64,000 bases of DNA from an uncultured bacterium. GTDB taxonomy: Bacteria; Patescibacteriota; Patescibacteriia; CAIQCM01. Under the pieces are notes generated by a model that was not told where the DNA came from, did not search any database, and saw only the letters and a program-made list of their open reading frames with translations. The stretch spans positions 971,042-1,035,041 of the forward strand of contig OY970181.1 of assembly GCA_963708045.1 (NCBI GenBank), given 5' to 3'. A program made the position numbers and the translations under genes. How positions within the stretch are numbered: position 1 is the first letter of the stretch; each line of letters begins with the position of its first letter. Of this stretch, positions 52,903 to 55,678 are shown piece after piece.

Positions 52903-53601
52903 TTATAGTGAGAGAGTATAAATAGATATGCGACCCCGTTGTAAACCGTCCTTTGCCTCGACACTAAACCGTTCAACTACCTTGTACCCGTGTTTCTTTG
53001 CTTGAGTTGCTGGATTATTAAGCGGTCCCGCGAGATGAAAATAGGGCATCACGATCATTGCATCTTTTTTTAGATATTTTTTAGCCGAGTCTAAAAACCT
53101 ATGGATTAGCGACCCGCGACTTATTCCCTTGATAGGCGTTGATATTTGTTCATCTATCGTTCCATCTGAAAAAAACGGGTGATTGAAGACGATGAGATCA
53201 AATTTTCCCGTAACATTTTCAAACAGGTCGCTCGCGACGACCCGCGCCACAGCACCAAGAGAATATCTTTTTACATTCTCGTTGGTATTTTTTATCGCAG
53301 AAGAGGAAATATCAGCGAACATTATTTTTTTTGCACCATATAAACCCATTACCACCCCTTGGATACCAGTCCCTGACCCCATATCCAGAACATCTCCATT
53401 CCGATATAATCCATTATTAAAAAACAGCCATTGGGCGAGATCAAGCGCGGACATTATATCGGGACGAAGAACAAAAGAATTAACTTTAAAATTTTTTAGC
53501 TGATGACCAGCTCCAAGAATAATATCAGTTATATAATTATCGTGACGATGCGCCTTAATCTGTTTATTAAATTGTTTTTGTTGTTGTAGGTTTAGTTTCA
53601 T
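52903..53601 (-). CDS. small class-I SAM-dependent methyltransferase (MTS / RsmC-like small domain) embedded in the array
   Basis: SAM motif I VLDMGSGTGIQGVV, acidic motif II (FADIS), and motif IV FNHPFF (an NPPF/NPPY-type variant). Confidence 0.6.
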   Translation of the reverse strand: MKLNLQQQKQFNKQIKAHRHDNYITDIILGAGHQLKNFKVNSFVLRPDIMSALDLAQWLFFNNGLYRNGDVLDMGSGTGIQGVVMGLYGAKKIMFADISSSAIKNTNENVKRYSLGAVARVVASDLFENVTGKFDLIVFNHPFFSDGTIDEQISTPIKGISRGSLIHRFLDSAKKYLKKDAMIVMPYFHLAGPLNNPATQAKKHGYKVVERFSVEAKDGLQRGRISIYTLSL

Positions 53602-53603
53602 AA

Positions 53604-55100
53604 CTATTTTCCTTTATTAACAACCCTGACGACCCCCTTATCCGCGTCCACTTCAACCATATCCCCACTTTTAAATATCTGTGTCGCTACCTTCGTACCG
53701 ATAACGCAAGGTTTTTTAAGTTCGCGGGCGACGATGGCGGCGTGGCAAGTGATCCCACCCTCATCAGTCACGAAAGCGGCTGATTTTTTCATTAAGCTTA
53801 AATAATCTGGCCGCGTCATACCGGTAATGAGTATATCACCATCGTTAAATTCGCCAGGGTTATGCGCGTCCATAACCACCCGGGCAACGCCCGTAACCTT
53901 GCCCTTAAAAGCCACCATCCCTTTAATCTCGTTCGTTTCCCCTGTTGCAAGTGGCGGGCTGATCTTTTTATAAAGTGCCCCTGCCTTACTACCAGCCAAA
54001 CACATTTCTTGACCAAAAATATCTCTAAAATATATGAATTCTTCCTTGCGCTCATTAACCGCAAAATCTTCTATGGTTTTTTTACCAGAAATAATCTCAT
54101 CCAGCTCCCACGGCAGAAGCATAATTGCATCCTCATAGTTAAGATGCTGTTTATCGCAAACAAATTCCAAGTGTCTTCCAAGATAATAGTTGGCGAGTAA
54201 GTTATATTCCTTACGGCGATCCACCCACCAACCGATTTTTCCCAGCCACAAAACCTTTTCATAATCATCTGGATCAAATATGGCTTGTTTTTTTATCTGA
54301 TTGCAGGCTTTTTTATGGTTGGCGGCGAAATCACTTAAAGTCTCAATTTCTGCTTTGTGGTCAGTTTTTATATCAGCCAAAACTTCAAACAATTGCTCGG
54401 CAAAAAATGAGACCGGCAGCGCAGAAATATTTTTATAGTTGTTCTTTATCCAGTGATATTCTTGTTGAATATTTTCTAGAGCGGATTTAATTTCCTTATT
54501 TGCCAACAAGTCTGATGTTGAAGAAAATTTAGTATCTATTAATCGGAGGGCGAGTTTTAATAATTCCTGACGATATCGATTTATAAATGTCTCCCCATAC
54601 TGTTCGGCGAGAATACGCAACTCCTCGCTACAGTACGGGTATTTTTCTTTCATCTCGTTAAAAAACCGTTCACCGTAAATCAGGACACCATTGATTGTAA
54701 CGGCGGGAATGTACTCGGCATCGTAGACGCGAATGAATTCGTCAAAATTTTGGTGAAGATATTCTTCACCCTCTTTCTTAACGAGTCCGATAAATTTTTT
54801 ATACTTATCTTCGGCTTTCAGAAAATCGGCGTATATTCTATCTAAAATACTCCGATCGCTCATCAATTTTAAAAACGAGGCATAATACTCCTCTTCGTCG
54901 GCCAGATACCCACCAACCGATCCGGCTTGGGTAATATGGAATCCGCAAAAAGTTTCCAAAATAAATTCCGGATAGCGTTTATATACACCCTCAGTCCATT
55001 GTCTAAGACCAAAACCAATAACATACGGGGTCATGCTCGAATTTTTAATAAGCCAATTTTTAACTTTAGCAATGCGTTCTTCTATAGTCAGCTCTTTCAT
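53604..55100 (-). CDS. array paralog A5
   Basis: ...GDILITGMTRPDYLSLMKKSAAFVTDEGGITCHAAIVARELKKPCVIGTKVATQIFKSGDMVEVDADKGVVRVVNKGK. Confidence 0.8.
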   Translation of the reverse strand: MKELTIEERIAKVKNWLIKNSSMTPYVIGFGLRQWTEGVYKRYPEFILETFCGFHITQAGSVGGYLADEEEYYASFLKLMSDRSILDRIYADFLKAEDKYKKFIGLVKKEGEEYLHQNFDEFIRVYDAEYIPAVTINGVLIYGERFFNEMKEKYPYCSEELRILAEQYGETFINRYRQELLKLALRLIDTKFSSTSDLLANKEIKSALENIQQEYHWIKNNYKNISALPVSFFAEQLFEVLADIKTDHKAEIETLSDFAANHKKACNQIKKQAIFDPDDYEKVLWLGKIGWWVDRRKEYNLLANYYLGRHLEFVCDKQHLNYEDAIMLLPWELDEIISGKKTIEDFAVNERKEEFIYFRDIFGQEMCLAGSKAGALYKKISPPLATGETNEIKGMVAFKGKVTGVARVVMDAHNPGEFNDGDILITGMTRPDYLSLMKKSAAFVTDEGGITCHAAIVARELKKPCVIGTKVATQIFKSGDMVEVDADKGVVRVVNKGK

Positions 55101-55678
55101 AATTCCATCTTCTTTAATTTATTCTCGGCAATTTGCTTAAGCTTTGGATCAAAAAATGTTGCGAGAGTTTTTTCAAGCATCTCTTTTATATAATTTTGAT
55201 CCTTAATAAGCGCGCCCATTTTCTTTAGCCGTTCGGTGTTAAAGCGATCCATACAATCTACGTCATGGAATACGCGCTTATTTTCCGAATCATAAACTTT
55301 ATTAATGTCAGTACTTTCAAGCTGATCGGCGTCATGCATACTAATTATCTCAACAATCTCCAATGACTTTGCTGGATCATATCCCACAGCACCAAGAATC
55401 TCCTTGGCAATTTTGGCGCCAGCGAGCATATGCACGAGCTTGCCGTTCTTAACTTTTTCCGTACCAGTAATGTATTTAAAATGCTCGGGCAGGATCGCCG
55501 AGTGGCCAATGTCGTGCATTATTGCAACGGGAATAAGAATATCAAAATATTTCGGATCAACATTGTTGACAATAAATTCAACAACCTCAAGCGCGTGCGT
55601 GTCGTCCCCCGGCCGCCCCTCTTTTAGAATCGGTTCAGCTTTTTCCCAAATTTTTAGATATTCATTAGGTATTCGCAT
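55097..55678 (-). CDS. HD-domain phosphohydrolase embedded in the array
   Basis: H...HD motif (AIMHDIGH) and downstream HDAD; ATGA overlap with A5. Similar in size and architecture to the HD protein at 483-1034. Confidence 0.65.
   Translation of the reverse strand: MRIPNEYLKIWEKAEPILKEGRPGDDTHALEVVEFIVNNVDPKYFDILIPVAIMHDIGHSAILPEHFKYITGTEKVKNGKLVHMLAGAKIAKEILGAVGYDPAKSLEIVEIISMHDADQLESTDINKVYDSENKRVFHDVDCMDRFNTERLKKMGALIKDQNYIKEMLEKTLATFFDPKLKQIAENKLKKMEL

Follow-up and report, generated by a model that had tools for sequence, protein, structure and literature searches.

A Conserved HD-Domain Protein within an Operon of Predicted Split-Dikinase Modules

The ten swivel-domain genes of a compact operon in a CPR/DPANN-type genome are predicted, from sequence and modeled structure, to encode "half" dikinases equivalent to the HpeH/PpsA/CreH partner in two-component small-molecule dikinases. 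An HD-domain protein encoded among them is an integral, conserved, and single-copy component of such arrays. A methyltransferase encoded in the same operon is most plausibly a lineage-specific guest, present in the array of this genome alone. With moderate confidence, we favor a joint reading in which the operon specifies split-dikinase modules, the HD protein acts as the conserved phosphohydrolase of the array, and the methyltransferase stands outside the system.

Two-component homologues of rifampin phosphotransferase (RPH) are biochemically established and include HpeHI, CreHI, and PpsAB (phenylphosphate synthase) (PMC12167813). In the Hpe pathway, the dikinase HpeHI is coupled with a dedicated phosphatase, HpeD, encoded in the same operon (PMC9618137). 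Our search of the literature, which was incomplete in coverage, found no description of arrays of the kind reported here or of their link to an HD protein, and an earlier description is possible.

Results

Organization of the operon

The window, the whole 64-kb stretch of DNA that was analyzed, carries on its minus strand an operon of 12 genes (47850-63285) with intergenic gaps of -4 to +18 nt. It consists of the HD gene, a methyltransferase (MTase) gene, and ten genes, A10 to A1 in the direction of reading, each with a C-terminal PEP-utilizer swivel domain; all operon features given below lie on the minus strand. A DivIC-like gene precedes A10 (61747-63285; 512 aa; PF00391, E=9e-24), the first swivel module of the operon. 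The start of A9 (60719-61750), a short-type swivel module of 343 aa (swivel HMM, E=3e-53), overlaps the A10 stop by 4 nt. Two modules are fused in A8 (58204-60717; 837 aa), which has two swivel domains, visible as two PF00391 stretches and as swivel HMM matches at residues 241-348 and 736-843. A7 (57174-58193; 339 aa), with its start refined to the ATG at 58193, is again of the short type. Directly upstream of the HD gene is A6 (55681-57171; 496 aa), in which an RPH-like substrate-binding domain is joined to a C-terminal swivel His domain.

The HD gene (55097-55678) encodes a predicted HD-domain phosphohydrolase of 193 aa with the motifs AIMHDIGH and SMHDADQ, and its stop codon overlaps the start codon of A5 (53604-55100; 498 aa; PF00391, E=6e-25) as ATGA. 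The initial annotation, which had reported a 193-aa HD reading frame with AIMHDIGH and HDAD between A5 and A6, ATGA-coupled to A5, was correct as to both the ORF and the overlap. The MTase gene (52903-53601; 232 aa), assigned to the FNHPFF subfamily of MTS/HemK-like class I SAM enzymes, has an ORF that holds VLDMGSGTGIQG and FNHPFF. Its start is separated from the A5 stop by 2 nt and its end from the refined A4 start by 4 nt, and an SD-like AAGGA precedes it; from these 2-nt and 4-nt gaps, co-transcription with the array is inferred. There follow two short-type swivel modules, A4 (51837-52898; 353 aa; PF00391, E=6e-26; start refined to the ATG at 52898) and A3 (50745-51818; 357 aa; swivel HMM), then A2 (49336-50739; 467 aa; swivel HMM), and finally A1 (47850-49334; 494 aa; PF00391, E=2e-25; start refined to the ATG at 49334). 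The genes that flank the MTase and HD genes all end in a PF00391 swivel domain (E=1e-24 to 1e-26).

A GC-rich hairpin read from the sequence, CCCTCCCCC-AAAAAT-GGGGGAGGG (47811-47834), stands 15 nt past the A1 stop. It recurs in the closest related contig (L006), likewise past the last swivel gene, and it likely marks the end of the operon. Promoter and terminator scans over the array gave counts not above those of shuffled controls, and an Rfam scan returned four tRNAs and nothing else.

The swivel modules resemble rifampin phosphotransferase

Each module is predicted to combine a strongly divergent substrate-binding domain of the RPH type with a conserved phospho-histidine swivel domain that follows it. 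The motif GG.T[CS]HAAI is present with its catalytic His intact in all 11 swivel domains of the array. The RPH-type N-domain was shown for A6; the other nine N-domains are too divergent to align. A profile of A6 matched RPH over residues 205-495 (E=5e-23), and its AF2 model (pLDDT 91.7) had as best Foldseek matches the RPH-Lm structures 5fbt, 5fbu, and 5hv1, over the entire length of the protein (E=3e-14, TMq 0.53). A6 itself has no ATP-grasp domain; two of its orthologues (P0245 and P0266) carry a fused PPDK_N and so display the full three-domain RPH architecture.

In the eight array proteins that were scanned, PF00391 was the sole Pfam domain, with neither the PEP/pyruvate TIM-barrel (PF02896) nor PPDK_N being found. 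NCBIfam matches of the modules covered the swivel region only (PEP_synth region 354-460), with scores far below cutoff. A reading of the modules as PEP synthase or PPDK is ruled out by the lack of a detected TIM-barrel and by the RPH-like N-domain, and such an annotation would be wrong. The initial annotation had called them phosphotransfer modules, which holds in spirit; more precisely, they are RPH/HpeH-like proteins of a substrate-binding and a swivel domain, and not parts of PEP synthase or of a PTS. Identity among the module N-domains averages 15.5%, as against 57% among the swivel domains, a disparity that suggests, at the level of sequence, many different substrates.

No match to PPDK_N (PF01326), the ATP-grasp domain, occurs anywhere in the 64-kb window. 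Among 26 related HD-containing arrays, 14 have it within the array or next to it, standalone or fused (PF01326, E=5e-98), and it also occurs at two loci whose arrays are without HD (L116 and L118). The standalone PPDK_N proteins of related loci are about 311 aa long.

The HD protein is a conserved component of the arrays

At least one side of the HD gene directly adjoins a swivel gene in 29 of 29 loci (the window and 28 others), and therefore the HD protein is a real array component. In 26 of the 29, a swivel gene on the same strand ends no more than 60 nt upstream of it. The position of the HD gene in related genomes, which the initial annotation had proposed to check, proved constant: its swivel neighbor is on the same strand in all 28 other loci. 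HD occurs once per array and is 48-81% identical across lineages, as compared to only 20-57% for the N-domains. Its neighbor is less uniform: a module of the A6 type ("nd-type") lies directly upstream in about 10-12 of the 29 loci and 14 have no nd-type neighbor of HD, orthology of the flanking modules being a matter for which the N-domains are too divergent to give a clean answer. A constant substrate, such as a nucleotide or the swivel His~P, would account for a highly conserved, single-copy HD protein beside diverse modules no less well than diverse products would.

HD is absent from two arrays that were found by way of A6 orthologues (L116 and L118), and each has a His-phosphatase-like or HAD gene in its place, an arrangement suggestive of non-orthologous replacement by His_Phos or HAD. 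Among related arrays in general, His_Phos_1-like proteins were found in about 10 loci and HAD proteins in two (L025 and L118). Since HD-less arrays carry another phosphatase, arrays seem to recruit a phosphatase.

By sequence, the HD protein belongs to a compact and highly conserved family. An alignment of 30 members has invariant H28, H55-D56, H83, H115-D116, H138-D139, D141, and D144-R145. The window protein alone scores below the gathering cutoff of Pfam HD (PF01966; 18.8 bits against 22), so its assignment to the HD superfamily is based on the matches of its family (29 of 30 relatives, best E=9e-10) and on its fold. The AF2 model (pLDDT 92.9) has the all-alpha HD fold, and all meaningful Foldseek neighbors are HD proteins, the best being 2pq7 (E=7e-3, TM 0.53); they include the HD domain of the CCA enzyme, PgpH, HDDC2, and HD-GYP. 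Searches of the HD profile against PDB sequences found nothing and NCBIfam gave no match; the one sequence-level PDB hint, a weak match, was to 3ccg, a YqeK-like HD hydrolase (E=0.17). The invariant H..HD..H..HD..D residues and the modeled fold would fit a phosphohydrolase. The array protein thus has in common with the HD superfamily (2pq7, 3ccg) the all-alpha fold and the H..HD..D metal-ligand pattern, but it stands apart from solved or named subfamilies in its TM of about 0.5 and in the invariant H138-D139-x-D141-xx-D144-R145 block, which is specific to the array family.

A second HD protein in the window had been described as being of the same size, 47 kb away, and possibly a paralogue. It is in fact 183 aa long, lies about 54 kb away, and is a DUF4202+HD protein (PF13875, E=1e-14). 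Alignment of the two proteins (BLASTP E=0.09, 21% identity, with no match of the second to the family HMM) revealed a shared superfamily motif only and no detectable closer kinship, and the second protein is not a paralogue of the first.

The methyltransferase is related to HemK but not linked to the arrays

The initial annotation had also recorded a 232-aa MTase ORF with FNHPFF between A4 and A5, which was recovered as described, and its MTS class was confirmed by Pfam (PF05175, E=2e-15, 57.3 bits against a cutoff of 23; the GxGxG SAM motif is present as VLDMGSGTG). The protein does not reach the cutoffs of the PrmC, PrmB, HemK2, and RsmC models, with scores of 54.5 for TIGR03534 (cutoff 199.1) and 47.5 for TIGR00536 (cutoff 115.5) among PrmC/HemK models, and 48.6 for the RsmC model NF007023 (cutoff 295). 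It also lacks the RsmC N-terminal domain; true RsmC matches are 328 aa long and contain PF08468. With the HemK/MTS N-methyltransferases (PrmC, PrmB, HemK2/MTQ2, MJ0882, RsmC) it shares the class I fold, GxGxG, and a motif IV of the form N-x-P-F, and the HemK-like region upstream of the SAM site can be aligned (residues 3-184 of TIGR03534, 9-185 of TIGR03533). It differs from them in that motif IV is NHPF rather than NPPY or DPPF, the FNHPFF being conserved across its own family, and in equivalog scores far below cutoff. It belongs to a HemK-related family restricted to CPR/DPANN. Nearly all of the closest solved relatives are N-methyltransferases (PRMTs, HemK, PrmA, METTL5, RsmC), and an N-methylation target is plausible for an MTase of the NHPF type.

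The MTase had been proposed as a member of the array, a claim that its distribution does not support. In seven other independent contexts, members of its family have no swivel, HD, or ATP-grasp gene nearby; the contexts are mixed or housekeeping, with PheRS and RNase P p30, IF-2 and RbfA, or RNase HII. The MTase is absent from 28 of 28 other HD-containing arrays and from the array of the closest relative. This unlinked distribution is the result that the initial annotation had itself named as refuting. A metagenome scan with the MTase alignment, in which one of the two patterns was a generic SAM-binding motif, returned 80 loci, 78 of them with unrelated MTases; the only true family members were at L036 and L037. 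Trinucleotide distance is largest for the MTase gene (0.336 versus 0.15-0.23 for the others), which is short and one of only two non-paralogous genes of the array, the other being HD (0.226). PADLOC found no defense-system match for HD, A5, A6, or the ATP-grasp protein; the MTase matched mad2 in its MTase domain alone (E=9e-19, 149 of 492 profile positions), and this is read as similarity at the domain level.

Comparison with L006 defines a variable block. Collinearity by blastn joins L006 1382-3598 to window 55851-53634 and L006 3464-4164 to window 48011-47338, and an orthologue of A5 (64% aa identity) follows the HD gene in L006. The intervening block (48011-53634), comprising the MTase, A4, A3, A2, and most of A1, is missing from L006. 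A three-way alignment places its junction in the last ~25 nt of a repeated swivel-coding segment, and the 5.6-kb block with the MTase may have been gained or lost via recombination between such repeats. The arrays are plainly recombinogenic and tolerant of guest genes.

Discussion

The modules correspond to HpeHI, CreHI, and PpsAB in that an RPH-type substrate-binding domain and a C-terminal swivel His (GGxT[SC]HAAI) are joined in one component, and in that the ATP-grasp domain is separate, a standalone PPDK_N being encoded in related loci. As in the Hpe operon, a phosphatase gene is found alongside dikinase genes (PMC9618137), although the putative partner here is an HD protein and not a NagD-type HAD phosphatase. 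Unlike these systems, the arrays string together as many as 11 highly divergent substrate-binding modules, some fused into polyproteins, are without catabolic genes, and reside in CPR/DPANN-type genomes; the 64-kb window, moreover, has no ATP-grasp gene. RPH (PDB 5fbt, 5hv1; PMC4844700) is the best fold and profile match of A6 for both the substrate-binding and swivel domains, but the window proteins are without its ATP-grasp domain, identity is only 15-17%, and there is no sign of rifamycin as a substrate. PEP synthase and PPDK have the PF00391 swivel domain and the ATP-grasp partner family in common with the arrays, and differ from them in possessing the TIM-barrel and in lacking an RPH-like N-domain.

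If the array works as RPH and HpeHI do, the swivel His would be loaded from ATP by a separate ATP-grasp (PPDK_N) protein, and the swivel domain would then pass the phosphate on to whatever small molecule the N-domain has bound. The HD protein would most likely serve as the array's phosphohydrolase, stripping phosphate that the modules had installed, and its substrate would most probably be the phosphorylated small-molecule product of a neighboring module. In favor of a phosphatase role are the invariant residues and modeled fold of the HD protein, the recurrence of other phosphatase types in related arrays, the coupling of HpeHI to HpeD, and the presence of one specific module type directly upstream of HD in at least 10 of the 29 loci. 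Phosphorylation could in that case be a transient handle or a trap, as in the Hpe pathway.

A different target for the HD protein would be the phosphorylated swivel domain, where it might remove the gamma-phosphate of a pyrophospho-His, as a stimulatory third subunit, or act on His~P as a reset or safety valve. We regard this as rather unlikely, yet several observations speak for it. A single HD protein would serve up to 11 modules whose N-domains are diverse and whose swivel domains are conserved, HD conservation follows that of the swivel and not that of the N-domain, and a swivel gene adjoins HD whatever the N-domain type. A small third protein stimulates phenylphosphate synthase, a member of the His_Phos_1 family (SixA) acts as a phosphohistidine phosphatase, and the HD domain of GlnD acts on a protein-linked phosphodiester. 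The pyrophospho-His of a split dikinase, in addition, needs hydrolysis of its gamma-phosphate (PMC12167813). Such an action on the carrier is disfavored by the fact that HpeHI and RPH work without a helper of this kind, that characterized HD enzymes act mostly on nucleotides or small phosphoesters, that the HAD-type guests (L118 and L025) are typical metabolite phosphatases, and that HD-less arrays exist. A nucleotide substrate is less probable still. The HD protein would then be a housekeeping enzyme (5'-nucleotidase, pyrophosphohydrolase, or YqeK-like Ap4A hydrolase) that recycles a nucleotide by-product of the dikinase, AMP or others; dikinases release AMP and Pi (PMC12167813), and the 3ccg match and the nucleotide-acting fold neighbors (PgpH, HDDC2, HD-GYP, the CCA-enzyme HD domain) point the same way. 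These matches are weak and generic, however, strict swivel adjacency is unexpected for a general nucleotide enzyme, and His_Phos or HAD takes the place of HD in other arrays.

The two embedded genes could also share one explanation. The initial annotation had suggested that both act on the substrates of the modules, and a version of this in which the MTase and HD proteins are both functional members, for example with methylation of the phosphorylated product, would draw on the tight packing of the MTase between its neighbors, the assorted small-molecule enzymes of arrays elsewhere, and the resemblance of the MTase family to N-methyltransferases, including aminoglycoside N-MTases (with weak E-values). 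We think it unlikely: in seven of seven other contexts, these being mixed or housekeeping, members of the MTase family show no linkage to swivel genes, and the gene is missing from the other arrays, the closest relative's included. Of the suggestion, the part concerning the HD protein gained strength from its position as an array partner, and the part concerning the MTase found no support. That both genes are passive insertions, functionally unlinked to the array, is highly improbable even in arrays that recombine and accept guests, because for HD it is contradicted by the 29 of 29 adjacency over distant lineages and by strong conservation; for the MTase, passive insertion is part of the best explanation. 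A functional tie of the MTase to the array that is specific to this genome may exist, since small-molecule enzymes are found in arrays of other genomes too, among them riboflavin synthase and kinase, SDR, and OTCase-like proteins. Under the preferred reading, the embedded MTase should be assigned no role in the array system.

Despite the tiny size of CPR/DPANN genomes, about 15 kb, more than 1% of a 1.19-Mb genome, is spent here on ten paralogous genes for which the usual annotation, PEP synthase or PEP-utilizing enzyme, is mistaken. To read them as split RPH/HpeH-type dikinases offers a testable hypothesis for a large "dark" block of genes, namely phospho-trapping, a transient phosphate handle, or detoxification, together with a phosphatase partner, and such arrays can be cleanly recognized in genomes by their HD family member. 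As a tentative and still doubtful proposal, CPR/DPANN organisms may possess a multiplexed and as yet undescribed phosphorylation system made up of a shared ATP-grasp loader, a fast-evolving library of tandem RPH-like modules that grows and shrinks by recombination, and a dedicated phosphatase (HD, or His_Phos or HAD elsewhere). Such a system would trap and then release or process many different small molecules from the host or environment, or would neutralize many different toxins, and the HD protein would be its signature accessory enzyme.

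Organization of the module array

The initial annotation had placed two genes other than swivel modules within the array, and both open reading frames (ORFs) are present as described: an HD-domain gene (HD; 55097-55678, minus strand, 193 aa, containing AIMHDIGH and SMHDADQ) and a methyltransferase gene (MTase; 52903-53601, minus strand, 232 aa, containing VLDMGSGTGIQG and FNHPFF). They are surrounded by ten minus-strand genes, A10 to A1, each encoding a C-terminal swivel domain (the PEP-utilizer phospho-histidine domain PF00391; E about 1e-24 to 1e-26 by Pfam). A8 (58204-60717, minus strand) is a two-module fusion protein with two such domains, and the catalytic motif GG.T[CS]HAAI is kept in all 11 swivel domains of the window. 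With start codons refined for A7 (58193), A4 (52898) and A1 (49334), the spacing among the twelve genes ranges from -4 to +18 nt. The HD stop overlaps the A5 start as ATGA, MTase starts 2 nt past the A5 stop and is preceded by AAGGA, and A4 starts 4 nt beyond the MTase end. On the 5' side of the array lies a DivIC-like gene; on the 3' side are a 9-bp GC-rich hairpin (47811-47834, minus strand) and, beyond it, a DUF559/MTES_1575 endonuclease-like gene (47398-47754, minus strand). Given the tight spacing, the overlaps and these borders, a single operon is the natural reading of the twelve genes, to which scans for consensus promoters and terminators over the array added nothing.

Just downstream of the array region, a minus-strand gene (45580-46398) encodes a type IV pilin-like protein with an N-terminal methylation motif and a Laminin_G_3/ConA-like lectin domain. 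About 28 kb from the array, a 79-aa ORF (19166-19405, minus strand) ends in the last ~25 residues of a swivel domain (...HDGDIVEVDANRGIVTILK; swivel HMM E = 9e-7) and looks like a leftover of a swivel-module gene.

Identity of the swivel modules

Pfam and NCBIfam detect only the swivel domain in the module proteins; all models for PEP synthase, PPDK and PTS identities fell far below cutoff. The structure of A6, whose gene lies upstream of HD, was predicted from 41 homologues (pLDDT 91.7) and has whole-length matches only to rifampin phosphotransferase (RPH; 5fbt, 5fbu and 5hv1; E = 3e-14, TMq 0.53), all remaining matches covering the swivel domain alone. Independently of the fold match, a sequence profile aligns A6 residues 205-495 with RPH residues 567-866 (E = 5e-23). 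The domain order outlined for RPH is ATP-grasp, rifampin-binding and swivel His (PMC4844700). The window modules have the last two of these domains but not the ATP-grasp, whereas two A6 orthologues, P0245 (815 aa) and P0266 (819 aa), carry the ATP-grasp domain PPDK_N (PF01326) fused ahead of the module and so have the complete RPH architecture. We regard this module architecture as established. Biochemistry has established such a split in the two-component dikinases HpeHI, CreHI and PpsAB, where an ATP-grasp protein works with a substrate-binding/swivel protein; ATP pyrophosphorylates the His, and after hydrolysis of the gamma-phosphate the beta-phosphate passes to a phenolic substrate (PMC12167813). 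The modules are likely to be split dikinase components of this RPH/HpeH type.

Among the window modules, mean identity is 57% for the swivel domains and 15.5% for the parts preceding them (N-domains), which are mostly invisible to one another by BLASTP and come in two sizes, either about 235-250 aa or about 360-410 aa.

The HD gene in related arrays

Two loci found by exact protein match, L006 (HD 81% identical) and L007 (63%), have swivel genes on both sides of HD. Scanning the HD alignment against one genome per GTDB species yielded 26 further loci; in all of these, ORFs were called and searched with HMMs for swivel, HD and MTase (n = 29, including the window). A swivel gene ends at most 60 nt upstream of HD on the same strand at 26 of the 29 loci, a further swivel ORF starts no more than 60 nt downstream at 20, and at every one HD has a swivel gene as its immediate neighbour on one side or both. 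Each locus has one HD copy and a median of 6 swivel domains in view. Because HD was the only criterion by which the loci were chosen, their selection does not explain the linkage. HD is very likely a true array component, and the initial annotation was right to flag it.

Several of these loci have features of their own. At L007, a minimal swivel-HD-swivel cassette (6652-13206) lies between dnaG and rpoD, within the classical macromolecular-synthesis neighbourhood. The HD gene of L033, from a Falkowbacteria MAG, is broken into two ORFs (9968-10225 and 10297-10578), a possible pseudogene or artefact of assembly. Five HD-array contigs (L012, L014, L023, L025 and L031) bear MAG labels that include Gammaproteobacteria, Methanosarcinales, Bathyarchaeia and Planctomycetota, which could mean either that CPR/DPANN contigs were mis-binned or that the distribution is wider. 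A6 homologues are also recorded from Nanoarchaeota and from unclassified 'archaeon' entries.

Patescibacteria-type metagenomes contain the HD family in abundance (at 90% identity, 235 clusters with E <= 1e-3, most of them 195-205 aa long). The family is also compact, with only 15 representatives (50% clustering) at E <= 1e-30 among 1.84 billion proteins. Its alignment has invariant H28, H55-D56, H83, H115-D116, H138-D139, D141 and D144-R145. NCBIfam holds no model for the family, and its profile found no match among PDB sequences. The meaningful fold neighbours of the predicted structure (pLDDT 92.9) are all HD proteins, none of them close (best 2pq7, E = 7e-3, TM 0.53). The initial annotation also listed a second HD protein of the same size 47 kb away, possibly a paralog. 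An HD protein is indeed encoded at the coordinates given (483-1034, minus strand), but it has 183 aa, lies about 54 kb from the array HD and belongs to DUF4202 (PF13875, E = 1e-14), with merely superfamily-level similarity to the array protein, so the proposed paralogy does not hold. It adjoins a 904-aa AAA+ gene, ClpB-like by reading of the translated ORF alone.

Other genes in the arrays

Non-swivel genes within or beside the arrays were clustered for identification. A standalone PPDK_N of ~311 aa (E = 5e-98), or PPDK_N fused to the first module, occurs within 10 kb at 14 of 26 loci, and we count this recurrent standalone ATP-grasp as established. Single proteins combine ATP-grasp with three modules (1529 aa, L008 3725-8311) or four (2277 aa, L014 3103-9933). 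The 64-kb window itself yielded no PPDK_N/ATP-grasp gene; the phosphate loader of its array must be something else or be encoded outside the window.

His_Phos_1-like proteins, belonging to two families, are encoded at about ten loci and a HAD hydrolase at L025. Conversely, arrays reached through A6 orthologues, L116 (at least five swivel genes and two His_Phos-like genes) and L118 (nine swivel genes and one HAD gene), both have a standalone PPDK_N and no HD within 21 kb. Thus HD always belongs to an array, although an array may lack HD; some phosphatase is a recurrent array feature.

Sporadic metabolic guests include OTCase-like proteins, M20 peptidase, riboflavin synthase (twice), riboflavin kinase, SDR, alpha/beta hydrolase, epimerase, CYTH, NTP-transferase and MatE. 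OTCase-like carbamoyltransferase genes lie inside two arrays (L009 2464-3414; L016 6891-7841 and 5284-6918), and the one in L016 lies with an M20 peptidase gene between a swivel gene and HD. Riboflavin synthase alpha-chain genes (Lum_binding x2) lie inside two unrelated arrays, those of L022 and L032, and L032 also encodes a protein that joins riboflavin kinase to a PD-(D/E)XK domain (L022 15307-15906; L032 15963-16799 and 16809-17432); these genes may hint at flavin-related substrates.

The methyltransferase and the variable block

MTase belongs to the class I enzymes of MTS type (PF05175, E = 2e-15). Its best NCBIfam matches, a PRK14968-type 'putative methyltransferase', HemK2/MTQ2, PrmB, PrmC and RsmC, are all far below cutoff, and an equivalog identity as PrmC, PrmB or RsmC was rejected on these scores; the PrmC/PrmB alignments span residues 3-185, exceeding the Rossmann core. 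PDB relatives at E about 1e-10 (PRMTs, MJ0882, HemK, PrmA, METTL5 and RsmC) are nearly all N-methyltransferases, MJ0882 being an entry without function annotation. About 70 close relatives make up the family (E <= 1e-29), from CPR bacteria and DPANN-type archaea, and FNHPFF is its signature (exact in 54 of 58 aligned members, every position at least 90% conserved). From these relatives and this signature, N-methylation is a reasonable guess. The methyltransferase domain of the PADLOC model mad2 (MADS defence) also matches MTase (E = 9e-19, 149 of 492 profile positions), which we read as domain-level similarity; no further MADS components were seen nearby.

The proposal that MTase acts with the array was not supported. 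At seven independent family loci (L001, L003, L005, L034, L035, L036 and L037; 34-62% identity), the available flanks contain no swivel, HD or PPDK_N genes, and the neighbours differ without relation between loci. By HMM search, MTase is absent from all 28 other HD-containing arrays. The most direct evidence is its absence from L006, a contig from the closest relative of the window (aa identity 81% for HD, 64% for A5 and 91% for DUF559). L006 is collinear with the window from 55851, in the conserved swivel-coding segment at the A6 3' end, through HD and A5 to 53634, and then jumps to 48011-47338, which holds the A1 end, the hairpin and DUF559, both of the latter being conserved after the L006 array. 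Its A5 orthologue is thus joined directly to sequence downstream of A1 (window 48011-53634 versus L006 3464-3598), and a three-way alignment puts the junction within the final ~25 nt of the swivel-coding segment. This collinearity and skip indicate that the 5.6-kb block MTase-A4-A3-A2-A1 represents an indel, either gained or lost, that separates close relatives and apparently arose through recombination between repeated swivel-coding ends. MTase is probably a guest in the array.

Proposed function and significance

We propose that an ATP-grasp protein acting in trans would load the modules, that the loaded modules would phosphorylate small molecules, and that HD would take off the phosphate so placed. 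A role for HD as a product phosphatase, with a small-molecule substrate, is our tentative preference. The main rival, that the HD substrate is the swivel phospho-carrier in its phospho- or pyrophospho-histidine form, would account for a single-copy HD whose conservation follows that of the swivel domain, with the N-domains free to diverge: across the HD loci, identity to the window is 48-81% for HD (median 52%), 61-86% for the best swivel and 20-57% (median 26%) for the best N-domain. We nevertheless consider it unlikely and lean towards a small-molecule product, because the non-homologous, metabolite-type HAD and His_Phos_1 proteins replace HD in other arrays, because one module type lies directly upstream of HD at no fewer than 10 of the 29 loci, and because the Hpe pathway offers a precedent, pairing a dikinase with a dedicated phosphatase so that phosphate serves as a trap or a temporary handle (PMC9618137).

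A literature search of incomplete coverage found no description of such arrays, which is absence of evidence only; rph-like BLAST matches in CPR genomes have merely been listed (PMC8651080). The parts are of known kinds, namely RPH-family two-component dikinases, the HD superfamily and HemK-like methyltransferases. What seems to be new is the organization, in which up to eleven hypervariable modules form tandem libraries and a compact HD family is found only in these. As judged from sequence, these arrays appear to grow and shrink when the conserved 3' ends of their swivel-coding segments recombine with one another.
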